Shown here in pieces: positions 4,211 through 61,066 of a stretch of 64,000 nt of DNA (position 1 is its first letter; every line of letters begins with the position of its first letter). This DNA comes from Eledone cirrhosa (taxonomy: Eukaryota): positions 310,868,001 through 310,932,000 of the forward strand of contig OZ024742.1 of NCBI GenBank assembly GCA_964016885.1. The letters run 5' to 3'. The position numbers were made by a program, and so were the translations under genes. The notes below the pieces were generated by a model. It worked only from the letters and a program-made list of their open reading frames with translations. It did no database searches and had not been told where the DNA came from.

Positions 4211-5675
4211 TGTTTCTGGTTATTACTCTTCATCAGTACAGTTTACTGTTCAGCTGCCAACTGTCAGAGCTAGTGAAAATATATGATATTTTCTAAAATA
4301 TAGTGACTGATCGGCCTGATTTGCATACTAGCAGACTGGCTGATCAGTCAGATCTGCATATTAGCAGATCCACTGATTAGCCAGATTTGCATATCAGCAG
4401 ATCGGTCAGTCAGTTTCCTGTATACGAACGATCAATGGCCGGCTTTGCCATATTCAAATAAAAAAAATAAAAAAATTAATTCTACATGGCTGAATACAAT
4501 AAATGTAATCTGAGTTTTTCAAATATTAATAATAATATTCGAGTCGTTTGCAATTATGCAAACAAGGCTTATTTTTAAAGCCATGTCGGGGAAGATTCAT
4601 TTTGCCATACGAGTGTTGAAGGTATCACCCATATCTTCAAAAATATCAGCAAGCTACTAACTTTCCCTGAGATGATATACTTGCGAAATCTGTTTACAGT
4701 AAAAGGCATACTAGAACCAACATATATAAAATCTTTAATATAAGGATGACTGATGAAACATCTTGATAAATACAGCAACCCTGTTCAAACTAAATAGATC
4801 TGATACAAGTCTGTGGGACAGGGAACAAAAGCCATGCACTGTTCTAGAAGTCAGCTGCCTAGCGGCTGTGAATATATTGTTTACGCTTGAGGAAGAATAA
4901 ATCATATACGGTCATTTACTGAGGAGCCTTACAGCTCTTGTATCCTGACTATAAATTCACACATTAAAGGTGCACTGCGTGATATAGCTACAGATTTGAA
5001 TAAAAGCGTGGAAATGCTGAGATTTTCCAAGAATGAACAGGACATATTAATCCGCTTCCTCCAAATCCAATCGTTTGGCGATACAGACAATATTTTCAAA
5101 ACATTACAAAGATTTTTCACTTGAGCGTCCAACAATTAATATATGCACACAACTACGTGCATGCAAATGATACACACATACATAAAGAGTAATCATGCAC
5201 TCACACACACACACACAAACACATACACACACACTCACTCACACACACATACACACACACATGCACACATCTGCACACATCTGCACTACAGAAACATGTG
5301 TGCAAGAATATACACCTAAAAATGTGCACGCATTAACTCAGTCAATTTTGTAGAAATCATTGGAACTGTCTTGACTCAAACTAAAGGGGTATGTCAGTAT
5401 ATTAGTAACCGGGTTGAATTCTGAAAAGGACTTATATAAAACTACAAAGAAAAATAATACATCTGATAATGTATAGGCAATCAATCAAATATGAAAGAAA
5501 TATAAAACATTTGAATATATAGAAAGAGCAATTGAAGTTGATAGCAACCATTATAAAGTTTCAGTTCCCAAATATTATGGTTCAGAAAAAGAGTTAGTGT
5601 GTCTATTTTACCACCATACCCTTCTTTAGAGGTATTATATTATATCATTATATATATATATATATATATATCATC

Positions 5676-6334: not shown

Positions 6335-6869
<535 letters not shown>

Positions 6870-7007
6870 AGTGTAAGTTTCTACACAAAACGAAGGTTAT
6901 AGAGAAAATTGAGGTTGGTAATGGCACATGGAATATATAAGAGACAGAATACTTTTTTGTGAAAAAACATATAATTTTATAAGGTAAGGAAAGAATAAAG
7001 GGTATAA

Positions 7008-7055
7008 AAAATGACCGGTTTCGATGGGTCTGCAAAAGCCATCTTTTCAAATGTT
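7008..7055 (-). ncRNA. Type I hammerhead ribozyme, U3-A8 variant (weak stem I)
   Basis: Minus strand: AACAT-TTGAAAA-GATGG..CCATC-GAAA-CCGG-TC-ATTTT. Confidence 0.6.
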
Positions 7056-7366
7056 GATTAATATTAAGAAAAATTAATAATAAGAAGAGTTCAAATTTGA
7101 GATTTGAAAATTCAAGTATAAAATTCAGTGTGGGATTTCATAGTAGTTTTCATCTTGGTAGCAGCAAGTTGACTGCTGTGTGTCCCTTTCTGGTAGTGAA
7201 TGAGGAATTATTTGTGGGGAGTGGGTTTTTTTAAGGTCAGATTTAGCAATGGCCAGATGGCCAGCTGCTGGTCAGTGAGGGGGTGGAAGCAATATACATA
7301 CATATATCTCCATGTGGTCGGTAGGAGAGGGGAGAGCGATAGAAAGGGATTTAGTGCACTTACACC

Positions 7367-7910
7367 TATATATACACATACCCTCATCCACACACACATA
7401 CATATACATACATATATATTTATATATATATATATATACACACACATACATACACACACACATACATATACATACACACATACACACACACACACACATA
7501 TACACATACACACACATATATATACACACACACATATATATACATACACATACATCCAGATACACACATACATACACACACACATACATACACATATATA
7601 TATATACACACACACACATACATACACACACACATATATACATACACACATACAAACACACACACACACACATATATACATATACACACACATATATATA
7701 CACACACACACACATATATATACATACACATACATCCAGATACACACATACATACACACACACACACACACACACTCACACACACACACATACATACACA
7801 TACATACATCCACATGCACACACATACACACACACACACATACACATACATACACCCACACACATAGAAAAATGGCCTCCAAATATATATATATACATAC
7901 ATACACATAT
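7367..7910. repeat. Compound (CA)n/(TA)n microsatellite with an internal duplication
   Basis: TACATCCAGATAC landmark at 7551 and 7731. It is representative of the many (TA)n, (CA)n, (TATG)n and (GA)n tracts across the window. Confidence 0.9.
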
Positions 7911-8275
7911 ATTTTTTCCATAATATAAGAAGTTAGAACAGTGAAATTAAAATACAAGTCATTCTGATCACATTGAGTTCTTCATGTAGATTGGGCCCCG
8001 CAACCGACAGTGGTGAATTCTGTGTGCGCATATATATATAGATATATGTGTGTGGACGTGCAGGGTTTAACATGAATGTGTTGGTCACACAAAGGCATGG
8101 TCTGTCAACGAATAAACCTGATTCTACAGAATTGGTCTCTGGTCTTTAATAGTAGTGATAATTATATACATGCACACATACACACACATATCTGTCACTC
8201 CGTGCGTATGTGTGTTTATATTTTATGACAATTCTATTGGGGTGATAACCCGTTTAGTTTTGGTTTAAATTTAAA

Positions 8276-8822
8276 TTTATGTATATATATATACATACTA
8301 CTGTACGTCTGTATACATATATGTATGTACGTATACCTAATTATATTTAAGTAACAGCCGTACTAAGAGTGAGAAATGAAATTTCGTTTCATTTTTTCCA
8401 TTTATCGTTTTCGGTGCGACTAACTCACTCGATATGCAAATTAGGCTGCTCAGCTGTTAATATGCATAAGGAAAGTATATACTTTCAGACGTTCAATCAT
8501 CTGGCAGAAAGCTATACGATGCTGACGATAGCTAATAAGCTTGAAACTAGTACATCGTTCCTTTGTCAGTGTTGAACAAAAGGGCAACGATGGTTGCTAA
8601 ATACTGTACGGCTTAATTCGGGCTGTTTGTTTACAAACAAACCGAGCATTATAATAAATGTTCGGTAAACCGATACGTGCATATATATATATACATTTAT
8701 GTATATATATACATACTACTGTACGTCTGTATACATATATGCATGTACGTATACATACTTATGTTTAAGTAACAGCCGTACTAAGAGTGAGAAATGAAAT
8801 TTCGTTTCATTTTTCCATTTAT
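8276..8822 (+). mobile_element. Retrozyme-like HHR repeat, family B (~418-bp unit plus partial second unit)
   Basis: CATACTACTG at 8294 and 8712. Ends ...TTTTCCATTTA then short (TA)n, contains the HHR at 8516-8558, and has a homologous copy at 39840-40543. Confidence 0.75.
8516..8558 (+). ncRNA. Minimal type I hammerhead ribozyme (family B)
   Basis: ACGATG-CTGACGA-tAGCT-aata-AGCTt-GAAA-CTAG-TA-CATCGT. Confidence 0.85.
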
Positions 8823-8836: not shown

Positions 8837-9987
8837 GGATTGGCAGTATCGATAGAGGGTCGAACGCCATGCTTTGAAGCATAGAGTTACGTCCCTTTAC
8901 GATCTGAGTTCAAATCGCGCCGATGTTCACTTTGCCTTTCATCCTTACGGGGTCGATAAAATAAAGTACCAGTAATGTACTGATTTGAGTGACTGGTTTG
9001 AGGTGGTTACTGGCGTGCGTCAAGGTTGCTCGCTCTCTCCAATTCTCTTTGGCATAGCCATTGACTGGGTACTAAGAAGAGCGTCTAAAGACCAGGGTAT
9101 ATCTTGGGTGGGAGAGCAAAAGTTGTCTGACCTGGACTTTGCGGACGATATTGCTGCACTTGCAGAGAGCACAGCTGACCTGCAAATCATTATGAACAAT
9201 ATCAATGTCGAAGCAGGAAGCTTAGGTCTCAATATCAGTGCCAAGAAGACCAAAAGCATGTTATCTGGGACACACCCACCACCAACCAGTGTCTTCATTG
9301 AACAGGGGGAGGTGAAGATAGTGGACAACTTCACCTACCTGGGAAGCTCCATTAACAATGAGGGCACCATGGACAGTGAACTGTCAATGTAGAATGGGAA
9401 AGGCTTCAGCAGCATTTAACCAGCTTGGCAAGATCTGGAAGAGCAGGAAGTTCACCCTCAAAACAAAGATGAGATTCTACAACAGCAACGTGCTGTCCAC
9501 ACTCTTGTACGGAAGTGAAACATGGCACCTTAAGACCAGCCAAGAGAAGAAGTTGGACGCATTTGATTCCAGGTGTCTGCAAAAGATCCTGGGGATTAAA
9601 TGGAGTGACCATGTAACAAACCAGGAAGTCAGGAACCGCACCAACCAGCAGCTAGTCTCTTCTACCATCTGCAAGCGACGCCTGGGCTGGTTTCGACACG
9701 CTTTGAGACTTCCTCCGGAGAGACTGGCGAACCAAGTACTTAAATGGAGCCCGCAGGGAAGCAGACGGAGAGGGCGACCCAAAATAAACTGGCGCCAAAC
9801 AGTTGAGGGGGACCTGCGAGCGACAAACAGACAATGGCGGGACGCTGTGCAACTGGCTGCTGACCGAACGCGATGGAACACTATGATTGCCTCATTCGTC
9901 GCAAGACGCGGGAGCTTCTGAGTCTGAGTCTGAGTCTGAATGTACTGGGTAATTGCTGGCCTTGTGCCAAACAAGTAGAAACAATTA
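8837..9987 (+). mobile_element. S1 SINE split by an RTE LINE (halves 8837-8982 and 9939-9987)
   Basis: The SINE consensus resumes exactly after the duplicated AATGTACTG. Outer TSD TATATCATTAT at 8824-8834 and 9986-9996. Confidence 0.9.
8983..9938 (+). pseudogene. 5'-truncated RTE-clade LINE, reverse transcriptase C-terminal half
   Basis: GVRQGCSLSP, DLDFADD, FTYLGS, LLYGSETW and RRRGRPK..W motifs in ORFs 8985-9392 and 9358-9921 (one frameshift). (CTGAGT)3 tail and 9-bp TSD at 8974-8982 and 9939-9947. Confidence 0.92.
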
Positions 9988-10061: not shown

Positions 10062-10461
10062 TAAAAGGAAAAGAAAATGCTGACAAACTTTTCCCAGTGA
10101 AAAATAGTTTAATTAGGAATAAGTAAAAATTAGTAATAGTATTAGTTAGTATTCAGTTTTGGTTTTAAGTTTTACCGGTTGCGCATTTCTAATGCTTTTC
10201 AAAAATAATTTTGAGATAGAGCGCCCGTGATGTTTGCGGATTAGAGCAAACATCACGGGTGCTCTATCTCAAAATTATTTTTGAAAAGCATTAGAAATGC
10301 GCAACCGGTAAAACTTAAAACCAAAACTGAATACTAACCAATACTTATTACTAATTTATACTTATTCCTAATTAAACTATTTTTAACTGGGAAAAATTTG
10401 TCACCATTTTCTTTTTCTTTTACCAATATATCATAACTCGTGTGTTACACCTCTATTCTTT

Positions 10462-12129: not shown

Positions 12130-15100
12130 GGTTAGTGTTAGGGTTAGGGTTAGGGTTAGGGTTTGGTTTAGGGTTAGGGTCAGGGTTAGGCTTAGGGTTA
12201 GGGTGTGGTTTAGGGTTAGGGTGAGGGTTAGGGTTAGGGTTTTGTTTAGGGTTAGGGTTAGGGTTAGGGTTTTGTTTAGGGTTAGGGTTAGGGTTTGGTT
12301 TAGGGTTAAGGTTTGGTTTAGGGTTAGGGTTAGGGTTAGGGTTTGGTTTAGAGTTAGGGTTAGGGTTAGGGTTTGGTTTAGGGTTAGGGTTAGGGTTTGG
12401 GTTTGGTTTAGGGTTAGGGTTAGGGTTTTGTTTAGGGTTAGGGTTAGGGTTAGGGTTTGGTTTAGGGTTAGAGTTAGGGTTTTGTTTAGGCTTAGGGTTA
12501 GGGTTTGGGTTAGGGTTTTGTTTAGGGTTAGGGTTAGGGTTTGGTAGGGTTAGGGTCAGGGTTTGGGTTTGGTTTAGGGTTAGGGTTTGGGTTTGGTTTA
12601 GGGTTAGGGTTAGGGTTTGGGTTAGGGTTAGGGTTAGAGTTTGGTTTAGGGTTAGGGTTTGGGTTTGGTTTAGGGTTTGGTTTAGGGTTAGGGTTAGGGA
12701 TATCGTTAGGGTTAGGGTTTGGTTTAGGGTTGGGGTTTGTGTTAAGGTTAGGGTTAAAAGTTAGGGTTAGGGTTAGGGTTTGGTTTACTGTTAGGGTTAG
12801 GGTTTGAGGTTGGGGTTGGGGTTGGGGTGGGGTTGGGGTTAGGGTTTGGGTTTGGTTTAGGGTTAGGGTTTGGGTTTGGTTTAGGGTTAGGGTTAGGGTT
12901 TGGATTAGAGTTAGGGTTAGAGTTTGGTTTAGGGTTAGGGTTTGGGTTTGGTTTAGAGTTTGGTTTAGGGTTAGTGTTAGGGATATCGTTAGGGTTAGGG
13001 TTTGGTTTAGGGTTGGGGTTTGGGTTAAGGTTAGGGTTAAAAGTTAGGGTTAGGGTTAGGGTTTGGTTTACTGTTAGGGTTAGGGTTTGAGGTTGGGGTT
13101 GGGGTTGGGGTGGGGTTGGGGTTAGGGTTAAAAGTTAGGGTTAGGGTTACGGTTAAAAGTTAGGGTTAGGTGTAGGGTTACGATTAGGGTTAGGGTTAAA
13201 ATTTAGGGTTAGGATTACGGTTTTGGTTAGGGTTAAGGCTAGGGTTAAAAGTTAGGGTTAATGTTAGGGATACGGTGAAAAGTTAGGTTTAGGGTTAGTG
13301 TTAGGATTAGGGTTAAAAGTTAGGGTTAGGGTTAGGCTTAGGGTTAGGGTTAGGGTTAAAAGTCAGGGTTAAATGTTAGGGTAAGGGCTAGTGTTAGGGT
13401 TAGGATTAGGGTTAAATGTTAGGGTTAGCCTTAGGGTTAGGGTTTGGTTTAGGTTTAAAAGTTAGGGTTAGGGTTAGGGTTAGGTTTAGGGTTAGGGTTA
13501 GTGTTAGGATTGGGGTTAGAGTTAGGGTTAGGGTTTGAGTTAGCGTTAGGGTTAGGTTTAGGTTTAAAACTTAGTGTTAGGGTTAGGGTTAGGGTTAAAT
13601 TTTAGGTTTAGGGTTAGGGTTAGTGTTAGGGTAAAAAGATAGCTTAGGGTTACAGCTAGGGTTAGGGTTAGGGTTAGGATTAGGGTTAAATGTTAGGTTT
13701 AGGGTTATGGTTAGTGTTAATGTTAGGATTAAAAGTTAGGGTTAGGTTTAAGGATAGGTTTAGGGTTAGGGATAAAATTAGGTTTAGTGTTATGGTTAGG
13801 GTTAGGGTTAAAAGTTAGGGTAAGGGTTAGGGTTAAAAGTTAGGCTTTCGTTTAAAGGTTAGGCTTAGGTTAGGGATAAAAGCTACGGTTAGCTTTAGGG
13901 TTAGGGCTAGGTTTAGGGTTAGGGTAAAATGTTAGCTAGGGTTAGCTTCAATGTTAGGGTTAGGGTTACGGTTAGTTTAGGGTTAGGGCTATCGATAAGG
14001 TTAGGGTTAGGGTTAGGTTTAGGGTTAGGGTTAGGTTTAGGGTTAGGGTCAAGGTTAAAATTTAGGGTTAAAAATTTGGGTTAGGGTTATTGTTAGGGTT
14101 AGTTTTAGGTGTAGTGTTAGGGTTAGGGTTAGAGTTAGGGTTAGGTTTAGGGTTAGGGCTAGGTCTTTTGTTAGGGTTAGGGTTAGGGTTAGGGTTAGGG
14201 TAGCGTTAGGGTTAAAATTTAGCGTTAAATTTAGCGTTAGGATTAGGGTTAGGGTTAGGATTAAAATTTAGGGTTAGGGTTACGGTTAGTGTTAGTGTTA
14301 GGGTTAGGGTTAGGGTTAAAAGTTAGGGTTAGGGTTAGGGTTAGTGTTAGAGTTCGGATTAAATGTTAGGGTTAGGGTTAGGATTAGGGTTAAACATCAG
14401 GGTTAGGTTTAGGGTTAGGGTTGGGATTAGGGTTATCGTTAGGGTGTAATTTTAGGGTTAGGTTTAGGTTTAGGGTTAAAAGTTAGGGTTAGGATTAGGG
14501 TTAGGGTTAAAATTTAGGGTTAAGCTTAGGGTTAGGTTTAGGGTTAGTGTTCGGGTTAAGGTTAGGTTTAGTGTTAGAGTTAGGTTTAGAGTTAGGTTTA
14601 TAGGGTTAGGTTTAGGTTTAATAGTTAGGGTTAGGGTTAGGGTTAGGATTAAAAGATAGGGTTAGGCTTAGGGTGGGGTTAATGTTAAAAATTAGGGTTA
14701 GGTTTAGGGTTAAGTTTGGGATTCGGGTTATCGTTAGGGTTAGGATTAGGGTTAAAAGCTAGGGTTAGCTTTAGGGTTAGGGCTAGGTTTAGGGTTAGGG
14801 TAAAATGTTAGGGTTAGAGTTAGGGTTAAAAGTTAGGGTTAGGGTTACATTTAGAGTTACGTTTAGGGTTAGGGTTAGGGTTACATTTAGAGTTACGTTT
14901 AGGGTTAGGGTTAGGGTTAGTGTTAAAAGTTAGCGTTAGGGTTAGGGTTAGGTGTAGTGTTATGGTTAGAGTTAGGGTTAGGGTTAGGGTTAGGGATAGG
15001 GTTAGGAATACGGTTAAAAGTTAGGGTTAGGGTTAGTGTTAGGTGTAGTGGTATTGTTAGGGTTAGGGTTAGGGTTAAAAGTTAGGGTTAGGGTTAGGGT

Positions 15101-18100
15101 TAGGGTTAAAAGTTAGGGTTAGTGTTAGGAATACGGTTAAAAGTTAGGGGTAGGGTTAGGGTTAGGGTTAGAGTTAAAAGTTAGGGTTAGGGTTAGGGTT
15201 AAAATTTAGGGTTAGGGTTAGGTATACGGTTAAAAGTGTGGGTTAGGGTTAGTGTTAGGATTAGGGTTAGGGTTAGGGTTAGGGTTAAATGTTAGGGTTA
15301 GGGTTTGGTATACAGTTAAAAGTTAGGGTTAGGGTTAAGGTTAGGGTTAGGGTTAAATGTTAGGGTTAGCCCTAGGGTTAGGGTTTGGTGTAGGGTTAAA
15401 TGTTAGGGTTAAGGTTAGGGTTAGAGTTAGGGTTAGGGTTATGTTTAGGGTTAAAAGGTAGGTTAGGGTTAGGGTTTACGGTTATGGTTAGCTTTAAGGT
15501 TAGGGTTAAAAGTTAGGGTTTGGGTTAGGGTTAGTGTTAGGGTTAAATGTTAGGGTTATACGTTAGGGTTAAACGTTTGCTTCAAGGTTAGGATTAGGGT
15601 TAGGGTTAGTTTAGGGTTAGGGTTATCGTTAAGGTTAGGGTTAGGGTTAGGTTTAGGGTTAGGGTCAATGTTAAAATTTAGGGTTAAAAATTTGGGTTAG
15701 GGTTATTGTTAGGGTTAGTTTTAGGTGTAGTGTTAGGGTTAGGGTTAGGGTTAGGGTTAAAAGTCAGGGTTAAATGTTAGGGTTAGGGCTAGTGTTAGGG
15801 TTAGGATTAGGGTTAAATGTTAGGGTTAGCCTTAGGGTTAGGGTTTGGTTTAGGTTTAAAAGTTAGTGTTATGGTTAGGGTTAGGGTTAAAAGTTAGGGT
15901 TAGGGTTAGGGTTAAAAGTTAGGCTTTCGTTTGAAGGTCAGGCTTAGGTTAGGGATAAAAGCTACGGTTAGCTTTAGGGTTAGGGCTAGGTTTAGGGTTA
16001 GGGTAAAATGTTAGCTAGGGTTAGCTTCAATGTTAGGGTTAGGGTTAGGGTTAGTTTATGGTTAGGGCTATCGATAAGGTTAGGGTTAGGGTTAGGTTTA
16101 GGGTTAGGGTCAAGGTTAAAATTTAGGGTTAAAAATTTGGGTTAGGGTTATTGTTAGGGTTAGTTTTAGGTGTAGTGTTAGGGTTAGGGTTAGAGTTAGG
16201 GTTAGGTTTAGGGTTAAGGCTAGGTCTTTTGTTAGGGTTAGGGTTAGGGTTAGGGTTAGGGTAGCGTTAGGGTTAAAATTTAGCGTTAAATTTAGCGTTA
16301 GGATTAGGGTTAGGGTTAGGATTAAAATTTAGGGTTATGGTTACGGTTAGTGTTAGTGTTAGGGTTAGGGTTAGGGTTAAAAGTTAGGGTTAGGGTTAGG
16401 GTTAGTGTTAGAGTTCGGATTAAATGTTAGGGTTAGGGTTAGGATTAAGGTTAAAAATCAGGGTTAGGTTTAGGGTTATCGTTAGGGTGTAATTTTAGGG
16501 TTAGGTTTAGGTTTAGGGTTAAAAGTTAGGGTTAGGATTAGGGTTAGGGTTAAAATTTAGGGTTAAGCTTAGGGTTAGGTTTAGGGTTAGTGTTCGGGTT
16601 AAGGTTAGGTTTAGTGTTAGAGTTAGGTTCAGAGTTAGGTTTATAGGGTTAGGTTTAGGTTTAATAGTTAGGGTTAGGGTTAGGGTTAGAATTAAAAGAT
16701 AGGGTTAGGCTTAGGGTGGGGTTAATGTTAAAAATTAGGGTTAGGTTTAGGGTTAAGTTTGGGATTCGGGTTATCGTTAGGGTTAGGGTTAGGGTTAAAA
16801 GCTAGGGTTAGCTTTAGGGTTAGGGCTAGGTTTAGGGTTAGGGTAAAATGTTAGGGTTAGAGTTAGGGTTAAAAGTTAGGGTTAGGGTTACATTTAGAGT
16901 TACGTTTAGGGTTAGGGTTAGGGTTACATTTAGAGTTACGTTTAGTGTTAGGGTTAGGGTTAGTGTTAAAAGTTAGCGTTAGGGTTAGGGTTAGGTGTAG
17001 TGTTAGGAATACGCTTAAAAGTTAGGGTTAGGGTTAGTGTTAGGTGTAGTGTTATGGTTAGGGTTAGCGTTAGGGTTAAAAGTTAGGGTTAGTGTTGGGA
17101 ATACGGTTAAAAGTTAGGGTTAGGCTTAGTGTTAGGTGTAGTGGTTTTGTTAGGGTTAGGGTTAGGGTTAAAAGTTAGGGTTAGGGTTAGGGTTAGGGTT
17201 AAAAGTTAGGGTTAGTGTTAGGAATACGGTTAAAAGTTAGGGGTAGGGTTAGGGTTAGGGTTAGAGTTAAAAGTTAGGGTTAGGGTTAGGGTTAAAATTT
17301 AGGGTTAGGGTTAGGTATACGGTTAAAAGTTGGGGTTAGGGTTAGTGTTAGGATTAGGGTTAGGGTTAGGGTTAGGGTTAGGGTTAGGGTTAAATGTTAG
17401 GGTTAGGGTTAGGTATACAGTTAAAAGTTTGGGTTAGGGTTAGTGTTAGGTTTAGGGTTAGGGTTAGGGTTAGGGTTAAGGTTAGGGTTAGGGTTAAATG
17501 TTAGGGTTAGCCCTAGAGTTAGGGTTTGGTGTAGGGTTAAATGTTAGGGTTAAGGTTAGGGTTAGAGTTAGGGTTAGGGTTATGGTTAGGGTTAAAAGGT
17601 AGGATTAGTGTTAGGGTTTACGGTTATGGTTAGCGTTAAGGTTAGGGTTAAAAGTTAGGGTTTGGGTTAGGGTTAGTGCTAGGGTTAAACGTTAGGGTTA
17701 TACGTTAGGGTTAAACGTTAGCTTCAAGGTTAGGATTAGGGTTAGGGTTAGTTTAGTGTTAGGGCTATCGCTAAGGTTAGGGTTAGGGTTAGGTTTAAGG
17801 TTAGGGTCAAGGTTAAAATTTAGGGTTAAAAATTTGGGTTAGGGTTATTGTCAGGGTTAGTTTTAGGTGTAGTGTTAAGGTTAGGGTTAGGGTTAGGGTT
17901 AAAAGTCAGGGTTAAATGTTAGGGTTAGGGCTAGTGTTAGGGTTAGGATTATGGTTAAATGTTAGGGTTAGCCTTAGGGTTAGGGTTTGGTTTAGGTTTA
18001 AAAGTTAGGGTTAGGGTTAGGGTTAGGGTTAAATGTAAGGTTTAGGGTTACGATTAGGTTAAACGGTTAAAAGTTAGGATTTGGGTTAGAGTTTACGGTT

Positions 18101-21100
18101 AAAAGTTAGAGTCAGGGTTACGGTTATGGTTAGGGTTAAGGTTAGGGTTAAAAGTTAGGGTTAGGTTAGGGTTAGGGTTAGGGTTAGGGTTAAAAGTTAG
18201 GGTTAGTGTTAGGGTTAGGTAAGAGTTAGGGCTATCGTTGGGTTATGGTTAGGGTAAAACGTTAGGGTTAGTGTTAGGGTTAAATGTTAGAGTTTGGGTT
18301 AGTGTTAGGGTTAGGTTTATAGGGTTAGGTTTAGGTTTAAAGATGGGTTAGGGTTAGGTTTAGGGTTAGGGTTAGTGTTAGGATTAGGGTTAGAGTTAGG
18401 GTTAGGGTTTGAGTTAGCGTTAGGGTTAGATTTATAGTGTTAGGTTTAGGTTTAAAACTTAGTGTTAGGGTTAGGGTTAGGGTTAGGGTTAGGGTTAGGG
18501 TTAGGGTTAGGGTTAGGGTTAGGGTTGGGGTTAGTGTTGGGGTTAGGGTTAGAGTTGGGGTTAGAGTTGGGGTTAGGGTTAGGGTTATGGTTGGGGGTTA
18601 GTGTTGGGGTTAGGGTTAGGGTTGGGGTTAGGGTTAGGGTTAGGGTTAGGGTTAGGGTTAGGGTTAGGGTTAGGGTTGGGGTTAAAAGTTAGTGTTTCGT
18701 TTAAAAGTTAGGGTTAGGGTTAGGGTTAGGGTTAAAAGTTAGGGTTAGGGTTAGGAATACGGTTAAAATTATGGTTATGGTTAGGGTTAGGGTTAAAACT
18801 AAGGGTTAGGGTAAGGGTTGGTATTAGGGTTAGGGTTACGGTTGGGGTTGGGGTTAGGGTTACGGTTAGGGTTAAAAGTTAGTATTAGGGTTAGGGTTAG
18901 GATTCGGGTTAGGGTTATAAGTTACGGTTTAGGTTACGTTTAGGCTTAGAGTTAGGTTTAGGGTTAGGTTTAGAGTTAGGGTTCAAAGTTAAGGTTAAAT
19001 GTTAAGGTTAGGGTTATGATTAGGTTTACGGTTAAAAGTTAGGGTTAAATGTTAGTGTTAGGGTTAGTGTTAGGGTTAGAGTTAAAGTTAGGATTAGGGT
19101 CAAATGTTAGGGTTAGGGTTAGGGTTAAATGTTAGGGTTAGGGTTAGAGTTAAATGTTAGGGTTAGGGTTAGGGTTAGGGTTAAAAGTGTTAGGTTTAGG
19201 GTTAGGGTTCAAAGTTTGGGTTAGGGTTAAGTTTAGGTTTAGGGTTAAACGTTATGGTTAGGGTTTGGGTTAGGGTTAGCGTTATTGTTAGGGTTACGGT
19301 TTAAAGTTAGTGTTAGGTTTAGGGTTACGGTCAGTATTAGGTTTAGGGTTAGGGCTAGGTTTAAATGATGAGGCTAGGGTCAGAGTTAGGTTTAGGGTTA
19401 GGGTTGAAATTGAGGATTAGGGTTAGTATTAGGGTTAGCCTTAGGGTTAGGGTTCAAAGTAAGGGTTGCGGTGACAGTTAGGGTTAAGGTTAGGGTTAAT
19501 GTTAAAACTTAGTGTTAGTTTTAGGGTTAGGGTTAGGTTTAGGGTTAGGGTTAGGGTTAAAAGTTAGCGTTAGGCTTAAAAGTTAGGATTAGGGTTAGGG
19601 TTAGGGTTAGGGATAAAAGTTAGGGTAAGGCTTAAGGTTAGTGTGAGGGTTAAAAGTTAGGTTTAAATGTTAGGGTTAGTGTTAGGGTTAGGGTTAAGGT
19701 TAGGATTAGTGTTAAAAGTTAGGGTTAGAGTTAGGGTTAAATGTTAGGTTAGCCTTAGGGTTTGGGTTAGAGTTAAAAGGTAGGGTTAGGGTTACGTTTA
19801 GGGTTAAATGTTAGGTTTAGGGTTATGGTTAGTGTTAATGTTAGGATTAAAAGTTAGGGTTAGGTTTAAGGATAGGTTTAGGGTTAAGGATAAAATTAGG
19901 TTTAGTGTTATGGTTAGGGTTAGGGTTAAAAGTTAGGGTTAGGTTTAGTGTTAAAGGTTAGGGTTTCGTTTAAAGGTTAGGCTTAGGTTTGAGTTAAAAG
20001 CTAGGGTTAGCTTTAGGGTTAGGGCTAGGGTTAGGGTTAGGGTAAAATGTTAGGGTTAGAGTTAGGGTTAAAAGTTAGGGTTAGGGTTACATTTAGAGTT
20101 ACGTTTAGGGTTAGGGTTAGGGTTACATTTAGAGTTACGTTTAGGGTTAGGGCTAGGGTTAGGGTTAAAAGTTAGCGTTAGGGTTAGGGTTAGGTGTAGT
20201 GTTATGGTTATGGTTAGGGTTAGGGTTAGGGTTAGGGTTAGTGTTAGGAATACGGTTAAAAGTAGGGTTAGGGTTAGGGTTAGGTGTAGTGTTATGGTTA
20301 GGGTTAGGGTTAGCGTTAGGGTTAAAAGTTAGGGTTAGTGTTGGGTATACGGTTAAAAGTTAGGGTTAGGGTTAAGGTTAGGTGTAGTGGTATGGTTAGG
20401 GTTAGGGTTAGGGTTAGGGTTAAAAGTTAGGGTTAGGGTTAGGGTTAAAAGTTAGGGTTAGTGTTAGGAATACGGTTAAAAGTTAGGGGTAGGGTTAGGG
20501 TTAGGATTAGGTGTAGTGTTATGGTTAGGGTTAGGGTTAGGGTTAGAGTTAAAAGTTATGGTTAAAGTTAGGGTTAAAATTTAGGGTTAGGGTTAGGTAT
20601 ACGGTTAAAAGTTTGGGTTAGGGTTAGTGTTAGGATTAGGGTTAGGGTTAGGGTTAGGGTTAAGGTTAGGGTTAGGGTTAAATGTTAGGGTTAGCCCTAG
20701 GGTTAGGGTTTGGTTTAGGGTTAAATGTTAGGGTTAAGGTTAGGGTTAGAGTTAGCGTTAGGGTTATGGTTAGGGTTAAAAGGTAGGATTAGGGTTAGGG
20801 TTTACGGTTATGGTTAGCGTTAAGGTTAGGGTTAAAAGTTAGGGTTTGGGTTAGGGTTAGTGTTAGGGTTAAACGTTAGGGTTATACGTTAGGGTTAAAC
20901 GTTAGGGTTAAACGTTAGCTTCAATGTTAGGGTTAGGGTTAGGGTTAGTTTAGGGTTAGGGCTATCGATATGGTTAGGGTTAGGGTTAGGTTTAGGGTTA
21001 GGGTCAAGGTTAAAATTTAGGGTTAAAAATTTGGGTTAGGGTTATTGTTAGGGTTAGTTTTAGGTGTAGTGTTAGGGTTAGGGTTAGAGTTAGGGTTAGG

Positions 21101-24100
21101 TTTAGGGTTAGGGCTAGGTCTTTTGTTAGGGTTAGGGTAGCGTTAGGGTTAAAATTTAGCGTTAAATTTAGCGTTAGGATTAGGGTTAGGGTTAGGATTA
21201 AAATTTAGGGTTAGGGTTACGGTTAGTGTTAGAGTTCGGATTAAATGTTAGGGTTAGGGTTAGGATTAGGGTTAAAAATCAGGGTTAGGTTTAGGGTTAG
21301 GGTTGGGATTAGGGTTATCGTTAGGGTTAAATTTTAGGGTTAGGTTTAGGTTTAGGGTTAAAAGTTAGGGTTAGGATTAGGGTTAGTGTTAAAATTTAGG
21401 GTTTAGCTTAGTGTTAGGTTTAGGGTTAGTGTTCGGGTTAAGGTTAGGTTTAGTGTTAGAGTTAGGTTTAGAGTTAGGTTTTTTAGGGTTAGGTTTAGGT
21501 TTAATAGTTAGGGTTAGGGTTAGGGTTAGGGTTAGGATTAAAAGATAGGGTTAGGCTTAGGGTGGGGTTAATGCTAAAAATTAGGGTTAGGTTTAGGGTT
21601 ATGTTTGGGATTAGGGTTATCGTTAGGGTTAGGGTTAGGGTTAAAAGTTAGGGTTAGCGTTAGGATTAGGGTTAGGGTTAACATTTAGGGTTAAGCTTAG
21701 GGTTAGGGTTAGGGTTAGGGTTAGTGTTAGGGTTAAAAGTTAGGATTAAGGTTAGGTTTAGGGTTGTGGTTGGCGTTGGGTTTTGGGTTAGGGTTAGGGT
21801 TAGGATTAAAAGTTAGGGTTAGGGTTAGCGTTAGGGTTAGCTTAAAAGTGAGTGTTAGGTTTAAAAGTTAGGGTTAGGTTTAAATGTTAGGCTTAGTATT
21901 AGGGTTAAAATCTAGGGTAAGGTTTAGGGTTAAGGATAGGGTTAGGGTTAGGTTTAAATGTTAGGGTTTGGGTTATTGTTAGGGTTAGTTTTAGGTGTAG
22001 TGTTAGGGTTAGGGTTAGGGCTAGGGTTAAGGTTAAAAGTTAGGGTTCGGGTTAGAGTTAGGGTTATGTTTAGGGTAGCGTTAGGGTTAAAATTTAGCGT
22101 TAAATCTAGCGTTAGGGTTAGGGTTAGGGTTAGGGTTAGGATTAAAATTTAGTGTTAGGGTTACAGTTAGGGTTATGGTTAGTGTTAGGGTTAGGGTAGG
22201 GTTAGTGTTATGGTTAGTGTTAGGCTTAAATGTTACGTTTTGGGTTAGGGTTAGGGTTCAGGTTAGGGTTAAATGTTAGTGTTAGTGTTAGGGTTAAAAC
22301 TTAGGGTTAGGGTTACAGTTAGAGTTACGGTTAGGGTTAGTGTTAAAAGTTAGGGGTAGGGTTAGGGTTAGGGTTAGGCTTAAATGTTAGGTTTAGGGTT
22401 AGGTTAGGGTTAGGGTTAGTGTTAGGTTTAGGGTTAAAAGTTTGGGTTAGGGTTAGGTTTAGGGTTAGAGTTAGGGTTAAACGTTAGGGTTAGGTTTACG
22501 GTTATGATTAGGGTTAGGGTTAGCGTAATGATTAGGGTTACGGTTAAAAGTTAGGGTTAGGGTTAGGTTTAGGATTACGGTTAGTGTTAGGTTTAGGGTT
22601 AGGGCTAGGTTTAAATGATATGGTTAGGGTTAGTGTTAGGGTTAGGGTTAGGGTTGAAATTTAGGGTTCGGGTTAACGTTAGGGTTAAAATTTAGCGTTA
22701 AGTTTAGGGTTAGGGTTATGGTTATGATTATGGTTAGGGTTAAAATTTAGTGTTAGGGTTACAGTTAGGGTTATGGTTAGTGTTAAAACTTAGTGTTAGG
22801 GTTAGGGTTAAGTTTAGTGTTAATGTTAGGATTAAAAGTTATATTTATTGTTATGGTTAGGTTTAGGGTTAGGGATAAAATTAGGTTTAGTGTTATGGTT
22901 AGAGTTAGGGTTAGGGTTAGGGTTAGGGTTAAAATTAAGGTTAGGGTTAGGGTTAGGGTTAAAATATAGGGTTAGAGTTAGGGTTAGCGTTAGAGTTAGG
23001 TTTATGGTTAGGGTTAGGGTTAGGGTTAGGGTTCGGGTTAGCTTTAGGGTTAGAGTTAGGGCTAGTGTTACGGTAGGGTTATGGTTAGGGTGATGGTTAG
23101 GGTTAGGGTAGCGTTAGGGTTAAAATTTAGCGTTAAGTTTAGCGATAGGGTTAGGATTAAAATTTTGGGTTAGAGTTACGGTTATGGTTAGGTTTAGGGT
23201 TAGGGTTAGGTTTAGGGTTATGGTTAGGGTTAGGCTTAAATGTTAGGTTTAGGGTTAGGGTTAATGTTAGGGTTAGGATTAGGGTTAGTGTTAGGGTTAA
23301 ATGTTAGGGTTAGTGTTAGTGTTAAAAGTTAGTGTTAGGGTTACAGTTAGACTTACGGTTATGGTTAGTGTTAGGGTTAGTGTTAAAAGTTAGGGGTAGT
23401 GTTAGGGTTAGGGTTAGGCTTAAATGTTAGGTTTGGGGCTAGGGGTAGGCTTAGGGTTAGTGTTAGGTTTAGGGTTAAAAGTTTGGGTTAGGGTTAAGTT
23501 TAGGGTTAAACGTTAGGGTTAGATTTACGGTTATGAATAGGGTTAGATTTAGCGTAATCGTTAGGGTTACGGTTAAAAGTTAGGGTTAGTTTTAGGTTTA
23601 GGGTTACGGTTAGTGTTATAGTTAAAACATAGCGTTAGGGCTAGGGTTAGGTTTAGTGTTAATGTTGGGTTTAAAAGTTAGGGTTAGGGTTAGGGATAAA
23701 ATTAGGTTTAGTGTTATGGTTAGGGTTAAGATTAGGCTTAGGGTTCGGTTTAGGTTTAGGGTTAAAAGTTAGTGTTAGGGTTATGGTTACGTTTAGTGTT
23801 AATATTAGGGTTAAAAGTTAGGGTTAGGGTTAGGGTTAGGGATAAAATTAGGTTTAGTGTTATGGTTAGAGTTAGGGTTAGGGTTAGGGTTACGGTTAGG
23901 ATTAAAATTATGGTTAGGGTTAGGGTTAGGTTTAAAATTTAGGGTTAAAGTTAGGGTTAGAGTTAGGGTTGTGGTTAAGGTTATGGTTATGGTTAGGGTT
24001 AGGTTCAGGGTTAGGGTTAGGGCTAGTGTTACGGTTAGGGTTAAGGTTAGGGTTAGGGTTAGGGTTAGTGTTAGGGTTAGGGTTAGGGTTAGGGTTAGGT

Positions 24101-27100: not shown

Positions 27101-28013
27101 TGGTTAAAAGTTATCGTTAAATTTAGGGTTAGGGTTATGGTTAGGTTTAGGGTTAAAAGTTAAGGTTAGGGTTAATGTTAAAACTTAGTTTTAGTGTTAG
27201 GGTTAGGGTTAGGGTTAGTGTTATTGTTAGGGTTAAAAGTTTGGGTTAGGGTTTGGGTTATGTTTAGGGTTCTGGTTAAAAGTTGGGATTAGGATTAGGG
27301 TTAGGGTTAGGGTTAGGGTTAGGGTTACAAGTTAGGGTTAGGTTTAAATGTTTGGTTTAATAGCTATGGTTAGGTTTAGGGTTAGGGCTAGGGTTAGGGT
27401 TAAATATTAAGGTTAGGGTTAGGGTTAAAAGTTATGTTTAGGGTTACATTTAGGATTACGGTTAGGGTTCGGGTTAGTGTTAAAAGTTAGGGTTAGGGTT
27501 AGTGTTAGGGTTAGGGTTATGTGTAGTGTTAGGTTTAGAGTTAGGGTTAGGGTTAAAAGTTAGGGTTAGGGTTAGAGTTAGGGTTATGGTTAGGGTTATG
27601 TTTAGGGTTAGGGTTAGTGCTATTGTTAGGGTTAGTGTTAGTGTTAAAAGTTAGGGTTAGGGTTAGGGTTAGTGTTAGGGTTAGGATTAGGGTTAGGTTT
27701 AAAATTTAGGGTTAGGCTTAGGGTTAGGTTTAGGGTTAGTGTTAGGGTTAGGGATAGGTTTAATCTTAGGGTTAGGGTTAGGGTTAGAGTTAGGGTTAAG
27801 GTTAGGGTTAGGTTTAGGGTTAGATTTAAAAGTTAGGGTTAGGTTGAGCGTTAGGGTTAAGGTTAGGGTTAGGGTTAGGGTTAGGGTTAGGGCTAGGGCT
27901 AGGGCTAGGGCTGTGGCTTGGGCTGGGGCTGTGGCTCTTGCTGTGGCTGGGGCTAGGGCTGTCTCTAACGTTAGGGCTAGGGTTATGTTTAGGATTAGAA
28001 TTAGGATTAGGGT
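12130..28013 (+). repeat. Interstitial degenerate telomeric (TTAGGG)n array, ~15.9 kb
   Basis: G-rich strand on + throughout, with variants TTAGTG, TTACGG, TTATGG, TTTGGT and 7-mers TTAAAAG/TTAAATG. Non-telomeric DNA on both sides. Confidence 0.97.
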
Positions 28014-39839: not shown

Positions 39840-39983
39840 TAAATGGAAAAAAATGAAATTTCATTTCTCACGCTTAATACGGCTGATACTTAAATATAAG
39901 TATGTATGCGTATATACATATATGTATACAGACGTACAGTAGTATATATGTATACAGACGTGCAGTATATACATACATACATG

Positions 39984-40069
<86 letters not shown>

Positions 40070-40543
40070 ATGGGTTTACCGAACATTTATTATAATGCTC
40101 GGTTTGTTTGTAAACAAACAGCCCGAATTATTAGCCGTACAGTGTTCAGCAACCATCGTTGCCCTTTTGTTCAACACTGACAAAGAAACGATGAACTAGT
40201 TTCTAGCTTATTAGCTGTCATCAGCACCGTATACCATCCTGTCATTCGATTGAACGTTTGAAAGTATATGCATATTAACGGCTGAGCAGCCTAATTTGCA
40301 TATCGAGTGAGTTAGTCGACCGGGTGTACCGAAAACGATAAATGGAAAAAACGAAATTTCATTTCTCACTCTTAGTACGGCTGATACTTAAATATAAGTA
40401 TGTATACGTACATACATATACGTATACAGACGTACAGTAGTATGTATATACATACATACATGCACATATATATATATATATGTACGTATGGGTTTACCGA
40501 ACATTTATTATAATGCTCGGTTTGTTTGTAAACAAACAGCCCG
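39840..40543 (-). mobile_element. Family B repeat, second locus (~1.4 units)
   Basis: AAATGGAAAAA at 39841 and 40340 (period 499 because of an expanded internal TA tract). Same terminus as the 8276-8822 copy, with (TA)n on both sides. Confidence 0.78.
40188..40230 (-). ncRNA. Minimal type I hammerhead ribozyme (family B copy 2)
   Basis: Minus strand: ACGGTG-CTGATGA-cAGCT-aata-AGCTa-GAAA-CTAG-TT-CATCGT. Confidence 0.8.
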
Positions 40544-40545
40544 GG

Positions 40546-40627
<82 letters not shown>

Positions 40628-40635
<8 letters not shown>

Positions 40636-40994
40636 ATACTTGGGGAGGGTCATATTTGCGTAATATTGCCAGAATTAATAACAGAACACACTCACTGTTT
40701 GGTTGGTTTTCGCTTCTCGCTGTCTTTTATATCTGCGATCTAACTTACTCGGTCCTCAATGTTGCCATTGACTGACCGACGGTCAAAAATAATACAGATA
40801 CAATATAGACACAAACACATATATATAGTTTACATAATTTACATAAATCTTTCGTTGCACATCTGCAACATCGTCAGGAGGAAAAAATATAACACCACTG
40901 ACGATGTTGCAGATGTGCAACGAAAGATTTATGTAAATTATAGTATAACAATATCTGTTTCGACACACGATTTCATATAAAAAACCTCGCTAAA

Positions 40995-40998
<4 letters not shown>
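40628..40998. mobile_element. ORF-less fold-back pLTR of the Penelope family at 47930-51402
   Basis: 40630-40875 matches 47930-48167. It is followed by an inverted, internally deleted pLTR piece and the same tail TGTTTCGACACACGATTTCATATAAAAAACCTCGC seen at 51349-51383. Confidence 0.85.
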
Positions 40999-42467: not shown

Positions 42468-42755
42468 AAATAGAATTTCGCTTCAAGCATAGTTTTATAC
42501 AATATGTATAAAAATTTCGTATCTCCAAAGAAATACGGTTTTAGGAAGCCGTTAGATATGCAAACACCGGGGGGGCTAACGCCCTCTGGTGATGTCCAGC
42601 AGAAGCAAGGGACCAGACGATGGCCAGTTAAGCCTGAAATGCATAGACGGTTGTCCCCTTGCTTCTGCTGGACATCATTAGAGGGCGTAAGCCCCCCGGT
42701 ATTTACATAGCTACGGCTTCCTAAAACCGTATTTCTTTGGAGATACGAAATATTT

Positions 42756-47925: not shown

Positions 47926-48111
47926 ATATATTGTTATACTTGGGGAGGGTCATATTTGTGTAATATTGCCAGAATTAATAACAGAACACACTCACTGTTT
48001 GGTTGGTTCTCGCTTCTGTGTCTTTTATATCGGTAATCTAATTTACTCAGTCCTCAATGTTGCCATTGACTGACCGACGGTCAAAAATAATACACATACA
48101 ATATAGACACA

Positions 48112-48174
48112 AACACATATATATAGTTTATCATAAATCTTTCGTTGCACATCTGCAACATCGTCAGTGGTGTT
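48112..48174 (-). ncRNA. HHR-like motif in the Penelope pLTR (also 60252-60323 + and around 40891-40940)
   Basis: CTGACGA-tGTTGCA-gatg-TGCAAC-GAAA-GATTTA-tga-TAAAC-TA. Core and stem II are clear, but proximal stem I pairing is poor. Confidence 0.55.
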
Positions 48175-48410
48175 ATATTTTCCTCCTGTTGTATTGTATG
48201 TCTACGCCATTTTTATTCAGTCTGTCTATATATTTATTTATTTATTTGCTTGTTTGTTTATTTTATTTTGTCTTCTTTGCGCATGCGTTTGCGTGTGTGT
48301 ATAGTGTTATGTTTGCTGTGTGATGGGTGACTAGTGTGTGTTTATGTGCTTGTTGTTATTGTGCTTTTGTATGTATTTATTTATTTATTTATCTTATTTT
48401 ATTTACTTAT

Positions 48411-50832
48411 TTATACTTCTCTTAGGTCAGTGTTGTTTGTTTGGGTGTTGTTGTTATTCCATTTATTCTTTCTGTTTAGCCTTAGTCTTCTAATTTCTAT
48501 TTCACTGGCCTCTCTGATTTGCCTATAGGCTGGGTCATTTCTATGTTTAGATATTATTCTAATTTCTATGTTGTCTATGTTACCGTTATGTTGTTGTCTA
48601 GCATGTTCGTATAGTACTGACCCGTTTTTTCGTCCTTTTAGTTCCCCCCAGTGATGGTCTATCCTTTCACCTATGCTACGAGCTGTCTCACCTATGTATG
48701 TTGTTGTCATGTTTCTGCAAGTACCCTCTGTACATCTTATGCTATAGACTACGTTTCTAGTTTTACAGTTTATCCGGGGGTTCACCTTACATATGATACA
48801 TTTCCTATTGGTACAGTGGGTTTTCTTAAAAGGGTAGGTTTTGCTGATCAGGGATTTTATGGTGGTTCCTGGCTTTTCTACCACCTTTATTTTTAAGTGG
48901 GTCTTTCTCAGGGCCTTTCTACACTGGTTAGCTAATTTCCCTCCAGGGGTGGCGTCCACAAACATGACACTCTGGTATCTCTGGTTGTCGTACCGTAAGG
49001 TGGCTTTCCATATCTTATGTCTAGCCCTATCTAAGCTATTCCATGATTTGCTCCTGCGTTATGGGCAAATTCCTTTCATGTCTAGTTCTATGAGGGTCTT
49101 ATACTTTTCCATGGCTCCTTCGTATACTCTGACTCTGTCTCTTTGGTTGTAGCCAGAGAACTGCATTCGGTTGATGAAGTGTTGGATGTGTCTTTCCATT
49201 TCTGTTGGGTCGCACATGCGGGACACATTCTTCATCACTCGTACCAAATCTGCGATCAGAATATTAAACTTAGCACTACTGGACATTGCTGAGTTTTTGA
49301 GTATCAGGTATTTGGAGGCCATGGGTTTAGCATAGTGTCAGTGGAGAATTTGGGCTCTCTCGTCTATAGTGTTAATCCAGAGTTCTGTGTCTAATACAGG
49401 TAGTCTATTGTTAGGGTGTTTGGAAGGGAAGTCGATAGTTACAGTTATACTCTGGTGTATATGAATTAGCTATCTGCTGGATGCTTTCCATCGTGCTACG
49501 TTCTAAATCAAACTTGTTAGTGCTCTCTAGTGGGGGTGTTCTTATAACTATATTGATATCGTCTACATAACGAGAGTACATGATGAGGTCTATGGAGCTT
49601 TCATTAAGGAGATCTTTAAGTCTCCTTTCCCACCATACCATGAAAAGCTTGGCAACATCACCAGCTATGCTGACGCCGATGGCTGCTCCCTCATTTTGGG
49701 TGTAGATTTTCTCGTTGAACTTAAATATGTGGCCCTTTAGGGTAGTTTTGATACTAGCCCCTATTGCATGTGCGACCATTTTTCTTACCTGATCATTGTT
49801 TTGGGGGGTCCGTATAGCTTTGGTCCACCCAATCCACCTTCCCATGGGAGTCTTTTTTGCCATTGAGGTTATGGTGGGGGGGGGGTCTACCTCTTATAGG
49901 TCTACTAGGGCAGAAACATCTAAGGTCATGGCTGTCTAGGTAGTCAGTGTCGTAGGTAAGTCTAAGTAGGAGGCCCAGTTCGTCTGTGTCGACGTCGCAG
50001 AACTCCACCTCACTCTCAATGATCATCTCCACACATCTTTTCACAGCAAAATCAATGTTAATGGATGGGTAAAGTGACACCACATCCATGCTGCCTATTA
50101 TGCAGTTGGATAGGCTCCTGTTTTTGTTGCACTCACTGATTCTGCTGAGGAGGTCCTCTGTACTGTCACATACATCTGGGGACATCTTGATTATGGGGCG
50201 TATAACCATTGAGAGGAAGTAGGAGATCCTGTAGTTGCTAGCTATATTAGCTCCGCATACTGGTCTTGTTGGTGGTCCTGTTGTCGGGTCGTCGACTGTC
50301 TTGTGGTCTTTGCGGAGCCCATACAAGGGTGGTATGCCATTGTTAGACGCCTGGAAGTTGTTGGCAGTGCGTCTTCTTGGCTTTAGGATGTCAGTCCACA
50401 TCATCATGTGAGCGTTGAGGATTTTTTCTCTCCCATCGTGTGTTTGTTGTGCAATTTCTCTCGTGTTGGTGATGTGGGGTTGCATAGCCTCGATGTAGTT
50501 CGGCATGCTATCTATTGACATCCTACCAGACTTATCTGTGGGTAGACACACTACCTCACCATCCCTTGTGCGCTGCTTGAGGCTAACCAAGCCTTCTACA
50601 GGTTTCCTCCCAAGTTGGTGAACTGTGCCTCTGTCTCGTCATCTATTTGTTGTGGTATGCAAACTCTTTTATTAAAGAGTAACCTCGTAGGATAGATATT
50701 ACCCATCTTATATGTTTTGTCAGCTGGGTTGAAAAATAGTTTCTCTAAGGGGTTTTCATTATATCTATCGTCATAGTTGTGTGTTGCTATTATTGTTATC
50801 AGGGTGGTTGTTGTTGTTTCTATCATTAGCAT
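48411..50832 (-). pseudogene. Penelope-like polyprotein (reverse transcriptase + GIY-YIG endonuclease), frameshifted
   Basis: PTDKSG, LYGLRKDHK, PTRPV, MDVVSLYPSI (49793-50590); QNEGAAIG, SRYVDDI (49411-49863); thumb (49059-49322); CxxxxCxxC linker, NVVYSIRC..C, YIGET (48411-48965). Confidence 0.92.
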
Positions 50833-51402
50833 TATTATTATTGTTATGATTGCTAGATGTATTGTTGTTTACTTCACCGTTGTTGTTGTTGTTGTTACTG
50901 TTATTTCTACCATTGTGGTTGTTACTTTTATTATGTTTCTTGTTTTTGTTGTGTCTATCATTGATGTTGCCACATGTACTATTTCCATTATTACCACTGT
51001 GGTTATTGTTGTTGTTGTTCGTATTGTTACCGTTATTACTACTGTGGTCGCTGCTGCTGTGTCTGTGGTTAATGTTTCTATTATTATTATTATTGTGGTT
51101 GTTGTTGTTCTGTCTATCGCTAGTATTATTACCATTATCACTATTTCTCACTTTCCTGCCATTGTTATAGTTATGGCTGTTATTTCTATACTCAGAGTTA
51201 TTGTTTATATTACTACTACCGTTATTATTGTTGTTGGACCGAGTAAGTTAGATTACCGATATAAAAGACAGCGAGAAGCGAAAACCAACCAAACAGTGAG
51301 TGTGTTCTGTTATTAATTCTGGCAATATTACACAAGTATAACAATATTTGTTTCGACACACGATTTCATATAAAAAACCTCGCAAAACTAATTCATCGCC
51401 GC

Positions 51403-52930: not shown

Positions 52931-53277
52931 CTCTCTATATATATATTATATATGCAAAAGTTCTATTTAAAATTGTTGGGATACAAGTAAATATTTTTAT
53001 AACTGATATAAAGCACTCGACAAGTATTTGGAGTAGATATACGATATTAATAAATGGAAACTATATTTATAAAACCATATTTATTTCATTATACATATTT
53101 CAGGGATACCAAATTAAATTATGGTATGCCTTCACGTCAAAGCTTATTTGTAAAACTGTTATATATTGTATTTTGTCTGATGAAGGCATACCATAATTTA
53201 ATTTGGTATCCCTGAAATATGTATAATGAAATAAATATGGTTTTATAAATATAGTTTCCATTTATTAATATCGTATA
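52930..53277. mobile_element. Fold-back pLTR cassette (arms 53037-53134 and 53181-53277)
   Basis: ~98-bp essentially perfect inverted arms, a one-sided tail with AGCACTCGA at 53012, and TA flanks. Confidence 0.75.
53169..53233 (+). ncRNA. Type I hammerhead ribozyme
   Basis: TATTTTGT-CTGATGA-AGGcATACCA..TGGTATcCCT-GAAA-TATGTA-TA-ATGAAATA. Confidence 0.8.
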
Positions 53278-59286: not shown

Positions 59287-59364
<78 letters not shown>

Positions 59365-59390
59365 GAAGCCGTTCTTAATATATATATATC

Positions 59391-61066
<1,676 letters not shown>

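Follow-up and report, generated by a model that had tools for sequence, protein, structure and literature searches.

The window, as we call the whole 64,000-nucleotide stretch of DNA analysed here, contains two copies of a 418-bp repeat that represents an apparently new family of non-LTR retrozymes; the class of element itself is known. We consider it probable that the family belongs among the animal (non-LTR) retrozymes as a non-autonomous element of Penelope type, and that the loci in the window are offspring copies of it. Directly observed were an end that is fixed, 5' ends that vary, a unit that continues over both junctions without an ORF, and variation that preserves structure. The structural features of a non-LTR retrozyme were also found, namely a predicted type I hammerhead in each unit and a non-coding, low-GC unit of 418 bp in head-to-tail arrangement.

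Locus 1 (8276..8822, plus strand) comprises 1.31 units of the family and locus 2 (39840..40543, minus strand) 1.49 units in unit coordinates, each with a single hammerhead. Both loci had been named, at about these positions, in the original prediction, which is confirmed on this point, as it is on the unit length, the same in both loci, and on their identical 3' terminus running into (TA)n. Its estimate of 1.3-1.4 units is right for locus 1 and too low for locus 2, which has a physical length of 704 bp because its second TA tract is expanded. Repeated words recur at a distance of 418 nt in both loci, and no further copy of the family was found within the 64-kb window. The unit is circularly permuted, has a GC content of 35% and is devoid of LTR, PBS and PPT; the ORF list contains no frame of at least 120 aa over either unit except a repeat-derived one (40398-40775). 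Both loci wrap head-to-tail from the end of the unit to its start. Their 3' terminus is the same base (8822, corresponding to 8405 of the first unit), followed by (TA)n, and their 5' ends differ, that of locus 2 being a 10-nt palindrome that abuts (TA)42 after a Penelope pLTR-like fragment (40632-40997). Locus 1 is followed immediately on its 3' side by a SINE (8837-8982; about 10 copies in the window) and then by a frameshifted RTE-like RT fragment (8976-9921).

The terminal duplicates differ by 4 substitutions in locus 1 (plus a 1-nt indel, over about 105 nt compared) and by 6 in locus 2, i.e. by 4-6% in about 100 nt, and inside each locus two locus-specific characters are common to both duplicates. 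As they share these characters and differ by 4 and 6 substitutions, each locus would derive from one template or one subfamily and have aged since. The coordinates of the features are collected in Table 1.

Table 1. Features of the 418-bp family and of related elements in the window (positions are those of the window)
Feature	Position	Strand	Remarks
Type I hammerhead (43 nt), locus 1	8516..8558	+	From motif scan; predicted cut between 8552 and 8553, after A8552
Hammerhead, locus 2	40188..40230	-	C.A at helix II base; GUU site
Extended stem I around the hammerhead (predicted)	8491..8577	+	Internal loop 8509-8515/8559-8561
First copy of the terminally repeated segment	8276..8405	+	Recurs at 8695-8822
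Fixed 3' end of insertions, in unit coordinates	8400..8405	+	Its final TAT fits the (TA)n target
Internal TA-rich tract of the unit	8677..8712	+	Expanded in locus 2, to about (TA)37; 23 X21 reads cross it head-to-tail
ATGCAAAT octamer, locus 1	8434..8441	+	74 nt upstream of stem I
ATGCAAAT octamer, locus 2	40294..40301	-	63 nt upstream of stem I; same hairpin
Hairpin whose 5' arm contains the octamer	8433..8468	+	Predicted in both loci
TATAAT in a hairpin loop	8650..8655	+	216 nt after octamer start (207 in locus 2)
Broken Penelope-like element	47932..51342	-	RT fragments, CxxxxCxxC linker, GIY-YIG; ends in (TA)n
Penelope-like end fragments	40632-40997, 59233-60504		End in (TA)n
Hammerhead-like motif at Penelope-like ends	48167, 40877, 40898, 60259		Extra U after the core

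In locus 1, the predicted hammerhead consists of stem I (8516-21/8553-58), the core (8522-28), a U8529.U8542 mismatch, stem II (8530-33/8538-41) and GAAA (8543-46); helix III would be a single A8546-U8551 pair closing a palindromic CUAG or, alternatively, two pairs with a 2-nt loop. The first base after the predicted cut is the one originally proposed, 8553. The 43-mers of the two loci are separated by five substitutions, none of which breaks a Watson-Crick pair, and 11 of 11 hammerhead pairs are kept in both copies. For the extended fold (33 pairs), 65 of 66 cells are paired across the two copies, a figure that two sequences cannot turn into evidence of covariation (500 of 500 shuffles reach it). 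A 43-nt ribozyme that keeps its fold had been expected, and this is true of its pairs. Locus 2, however, has a U at the cleavage residue (GUU), and at its helix II base C.A takes the place of U.U; a fold that competes with its hammerhead fold is lower by 8 kcal/mol, compared with 6.8 in locus 1. U is described as excluded at the cleavage residue of natural hammerheads (PMC1636495), and the hammerhead of locus 2, as read from its sequence, is probably impaired. All 9 differences found in a contig of the public run X4 that spans 8522-8666 fall outside the U.U and the GUA, so that the U.U and GUA of locus 1 look like the family state.

The assignment as a hammerhead rests on the motif and on the variants described below. 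Rfam assigned it to no hammerhead family at E<=10. In a window-wide Rfam scan, whose output was dominated by microsatellites matching miRNA models, no hammerhead was present among the 150 of 160 matches listed. Exact-pattern scans for the hammerhead and for the octamer hairpin found no locus in metagenome contigs, nor any in viral contigs. We also considered a hairpin between the post-cleavage 5' end and 8587-8593, and discarded it on seeing it only in short folds and not in the fold of the unit.

Two consecutive hammerheads have been used as the criterion for an active retrozyme, and one of nine dimers tested was found to cleave (10.64898/2026.07.22.740005). Locus 1 and locus 2 do not have this arrangement; with one hammerhead each, neither would be able to release a monomer alone. 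By their sequence, they are ordinary, partly decayed offspring copies. The proposal of an active, self-processing retrozyme is borne out as far as a retrozyme-type hammerhead repeat is concerned, and not for these two loci as its active source, since they have one hammerhead each and are decayed.

Public sequencing data were used to look at the family beyond the window. Twenty-three runs were matched, three of which contained at least half of the words, all from one sample of organism A; four of the 23 were aligned to one unit plus its left flank (8100-8717). X1, which represents 1,381 million letters of contigs and is probably whole-genome DNA, yielded 16,583 matching contigs. Their summed depth was 0.4-2.7 million along 8268-8666, as against 5-23 for the longest pieces; zero contigs covered 8100-8183, and none spanned the whole 8100-8717 stretch. 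Depth is not itself a copy number, and we infer that the family is present at high copy, its members numbering in the thousands or more. The second best-supported loose end of X1 was at 8405, where 58 contigs run into (TA)n, indicating that the fixed 3' end is family-wide. At position 8553, X1 showed no step in depth and, among the best 24 of 818 loose ends listed, no loose end. In X21, 23 reads run from 8663 through the TA tract to 8284, which indicates that the unit closes on itself.

In X4 (organism B), the family was found at a depth of about 40-140 with the same variants as in organism A; trace DNA is possible there, so that this is not evidence of conservation across species. RNA-labelled runs (X15-X20, three on record as RNA and three guessed) contained 0.04 of the words. 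Coverage in X17 speaks neither for nor against expression, as only the AT-rich 8247-8372 was matched, at less than 95% identity, which corresponds to AT-rich noise. The piles of read ends seen in X21 at 8294, 8380, 8439-8442 and 8618 were not taken as biological, because they fall on restriction-type sites (the enzyme being inferred).

The distribution of variants was compared with the circular fold predicted from locus 1. Among the best 40 of 87 variants, 34 lie in 8337-8640, and 7 of these break a predicted pair, where random placement would give 14.2 ± 2.3 (P = 0.002); the others are in unpaired positions (21) or keep the pair (6). Two of the 7 pair-breaking variants, 8519T and 8555G, form a U.G if carried by one molecule. 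The pair 8519:8555 would then be A-U in locus 1, G.U in one class of reads and apparently U.G in another. The variants listed in the hammerhead are 8519G, 8519T with 8555G, 8526T and 8536C, so that core variation among them is confined to the free position 8526 and the loop base 8536. Compared with shuffled sequences, the ribozyme strand folds with z scores of -4.9 and -3.8, and the opposite strand is equally stable (-4.3 and -5.6). The predicted fold also includes a perfect 8-bp long-range complementarity between 8353-8360 and 8606-8613, which closes the domain made of the octamer hairpin and the hammerhead. The conclusion that the RNA fold of the repeat is under selection is supported.

The avoidance of paired positions by variants argues against the idea that the repeat is a satellite amplified at the DNA level, by unequal crossover or slippage at TA tracts, and that its hammerhead is a relic. 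The copies are, furthermore, dispersed on opposite strands with one end fixed and the other variable, and we hold this explanation to be very improbable, even though TA tracts do expand in locus 2 and local tandem amplification has been proposed for retrozymes (10.64898/2026.07.22.740005).

The ends of the copies are informative on the template that was reverse-transcribed. Both loci extend from the fixed end back through the cleavage junction and over more than one unit, locus 2 ending some 66 nt before it would reach another cleavage site. From a linear monomer cleaved on both sides no more than 270 nt could be copied, and it is not the template. Since both copies reach from a fixed end inside the unit across the cleavage site, the template would have been a circle or an uncleaved multimer, alternatives that are equal here. 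Reverse transcription, we infer, starts at the fixed end (8400..8405, with 8405 equivalent to 8822).

Copying by a Penelope-like RT is most likely. The hallmarks of such copying were found, i.e. a fixed 3' end, variable 5' truncation, a partial tandem and an AT-rich or microsatellite target. Penelope-like elements (PLEs) are described as forming partial tandems, 5' truncations and inversions, Naiads preferring (TA)n (PMC8557442). A PLE protein studied in purified form was found to nick AT-rich DNA and to begin synthesis at an internal site of its RNA, for which it accepts uncleaved RNA and needs no hammerhead cleavage (PMC11167929), and retrozymes have been proposed to be non-autonomous PLEs (10.64898/2026.07.22.740005). 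We therefore propose the following cycle. Source loci with at least two units, presumably outside the window, would be transcribed, and their hammerheads would cut out 418-nt monomers, probably as dimers that associate via the palindromic helix III. The monomers could be ligated into circles, as extrapolated from mussel and axolotl. A Penelope-like RT/GIY-YIG protein would nick a (TA)n tract, and cDNA synthesis would begin at a single position within the RNA, 270 nt downstream of the cleavage site; it would then run across the cleavage junction and, with more than one unit copied, end at a point that varies.

We considered the possibility that the copies are 5'-truncated pseudo-LTRs (pLTRs) of a coding PLE with a tandemly repeated terminal region. 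Like the hammerhead found here, those of PLEs are of type I and have a palindromic, very short loop in helix III (PMC6765202), Xenopus retrozymes are described as homologous to pLTRs (10.64898/2026.07.22.740005), and the window holds several hammerhead fragments that end in TA, one family of which borders PLE ORFs. Yet both loci wrap from end to start without an ORF, the 23 X21 reads cross the TA tract head-to-tail, and the best six loose ends of X1 had no common non-unit flank except TA. No unit joined to an RT plus GIY-YIG ORF was found in the window or among the 24 of 818 loose ends listed. The long extended stem I is, moreover, canonical rather than minimal. We regard this possibility as unlikely, and favour the non-autonomous retrozyme mobilised by a Penelope-like protein.

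An element of the kind that could mobilise the family is present in the window, in the form of the broken PLE at 47932-51342. By the descriptions in PMC8557442 it is Neptune/Nematis-like; Pfam gave no family for two PLE fragments and a weak RVT_1 for a third. Locus 2 sits in the TA tail of a PLE end fragment, and no DNA similarity was detected between the PLE ends of the window and the 418-bp family. Other hammerhead-like motifs with palindromic helix III loops were observed at 6429-6753, 53042-53273, 32013 (+), 32280 (-) and 52726 (+); two are within perfect fold-back palindromes, and most reach TA repeats 40-75 nt later, as other Penelope-type ends. An unrelated hammerhead element, 53042-53273, contains the last 11 nt of the 418-bp family (8812-8822) at 53255-53265, some 9 nt ahead of its TA run; chance alone would give 0.1 occurrences. 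This shared word is possibly recognized by the RT; its base 8400 is often G in reads.

Several other repeats were seen in the window. Long fold-back palindromes in which no hammerhead was detected lie mostly beside TA tracts (53425-53719, 10078-10406, 42516-42749, 30455-30609 and 60651-60783). The region 12130-27960 is a 15.8-kb degenerate TTAGGG-like array (about 2,580 copies, 70% matches), i.e. an interstitial telomeric tract or a chromosome-end junction, and 43993-45367 is a 32-bp minisatellite with 37 copies at 95% identity and a short inverted block (45280-45367). The TTAGGG-like arrays, the density of microsatellites and the octopus-like character of a SINE suggest that the host is a mollusc, probably a cephalopod.

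A perfect octamer 60-75 nt upstream of the hammerhead had also been predicted. It is present in both loci, though not clearly beyond chance: an octamer occurred on either strand in 904 of 20,000 dinucleotide shuffles of one unit (4.5%), and the motif was found post hoc. Since 248 of 411 8-mers of the locus-1 unit (60%) are also in locus 2 and the copies share descent, its presence in both counts as one observation. No variant was found at 8434-8441 among the 40 of 87 listed; at about 0.1 listed variants per base, however, about 4 in 10 8-mers would be free of variants by chance, and few variants are in any case to be expected where bases are paired. The octamer is intact in two X4 contigs (pieces 19 and 21) whose differences can all be placed, and 6,654 of 8,527 RAD reads of one class end at 8439, at an AATT that overlaps it. 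In the predicted hairpin 7 of its 8 bases are paired, and the three hairpin variants listed, at 8443 (G.U), 8448 (loop) and 8455 (G-C), all keep the fold. The octamer is most simply viewed as one arm of a conserved RNA hairpin, as modelled by folding.

The octamer could also belong to an octamer/snRNA-type promoter of the unit's own, which would drive monomer RNA like that of newt satellite 2 (PMC2220036) and could coexist with Penelope-type insertion. In snRNA promoters the octamer is located at -250 to -170 (PMC9652321), and a PSE is needed (PMC9652321, PMC2235858), at -40 to -70. Such a spacing would place the start at about 8605-8690, past the hammerhead, so that a position just upstream of the ribozyme is not where such an octamer would be expected. 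With that start, neither locus would make ribozyme-bearing RNA from its octamer, whereas a tandem array would. The distance from the octamer to the TATAAT is close to that of the predicted Schistosoma U6 elements (OCT at -253 and TATA at -36; PMC5460494), but TATA-like words are common in the unit, 35% of whose 31-nt windows hold one. Visual comparison revealed no resemblance to the PSE predicted for Schistosoma.

X21 provided a hint of an octamer-less subfamily, which ligation chimeras at AATT cuts could also explain: one class of reads covers the hammerhead to a depth of about 6,500-8,700 and position 8443 to a depth of 884, and in 111 reads (5 starts) 8384 is joined to 8465, so that 8385-8464 and with it the octamer are skipped. 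Taken together, a promoter of this type appears doubtful. We think it more doubtful still that such an internal Oct/snRNA-type promoter, with transcription starting near 8686, about 250 nt downstream of an octamer that serves both as DNA enhancer and as RNA stem, would produce a circular RNA that Penelope RT copies from one fixed site into (TA)n. If true, this combined reading would provide a counterpart of newt satellite 2 from a distant phylum and offer a direct system for testing the transcription and insertion of retrozymes. In the window as a whole, 8 octamers were seen where 2.7 are expected, representing about 6 independent events. Three 33-bp tandem copies at 4306-4403 contain octamers on the minus strand, perfect in two of them and with a single mismatch in one; this cluster is a better enhancer candidate than the single octamer of the 418-bp unit.

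Animal non-LTR retrozymes are repeats of 150-450 bp with a GC content below 50%, those of mussel measuring 350-390 bp and those of coral 220-240 bp (Cervera and de la Pena 2020, PMC7229834). The present family resembles them as a short, low-GC, non-coding repeat with a type I hammerhead, a highly paired predicted circle, no LTR, PBS or PPT, and PLEs in the genome. It differs from them in that only dispersed copies of 1.3-1.5 units with one hammerhead each are found here, and in having a constant 3' end that runs into (TA)n; the main text of PMC7229834 does not use the word 'microsatellite'.

The likeness of the ribozyme to that of newt satellite 2, noted in the original prediction, is upheld by salamander-like features (PMC7229834). 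A helix III of one pair with a palindromic tetraloop is found in axolotl HHR_Amex1 and satellite 2, and a U.U mismatch at the base of helix II in HHR_Amex2; HHR_Amex1 and HHR_Amex2 cleave weakly as monomers and better as dimers (PMC7229834). By analogy with axolotl, the one-pair helix III with its palindromic tetraloop and the U.U make dimeric cleavage likely. The family is unlike the salamander satellite 2 and axolotl hammerheads in its length (418 instead of 330-350 bp), in the GUA site and in uniting both features in one ribozyme. The octamer lies 119 nt before the predicted cleavage site, a position that does not match the register it is said to have in satellite 2. As a short palindromic helix III is typical of Penelope hammerheads too (PMC6765202), the salamander echo is real for the ribozyme without being specific.

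With PLEs and the non-autonomous elements derived from them (PMC8557442, PMC11167929; Li, Clavereau and Pollet 2026, 10.64898/2026.07.22.740005), the family shares the partial tandem, 5' truncation and short 5' fold-back, as well as the microsatellite target, the fixed internal start of reverse transcription and a hammerhead with palindromic helix III. It differs from them by having no ORF, no detected homology to the one coding PLE of the window and no second start site (tail) among the loose ends listed. In a search of published papers, which returned PMC8557442 alone, we found no description of a cephalopod or octopus retrozyme, and the main text of the Octopus vulgaris repeat paper contains neither 'ribozyme' nor 'hammerhead'.

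The hammerhead of the 418-bp family joins two features known separately from axolotl. Evidence on the life cycle of animal retrozymes is described as limited and their insertion as still a hypothesis (10.64898/2026.07.22.740005). In the footprint left by the family, copies exceed one unit, read through the cleavage site and have a single internal end, which is fixed at (TA)n. This footprint excludes the cleaved linear monomer as a template and points to a Penelope RT acting on a circle or a multimer, which makes the family a good test substrate.
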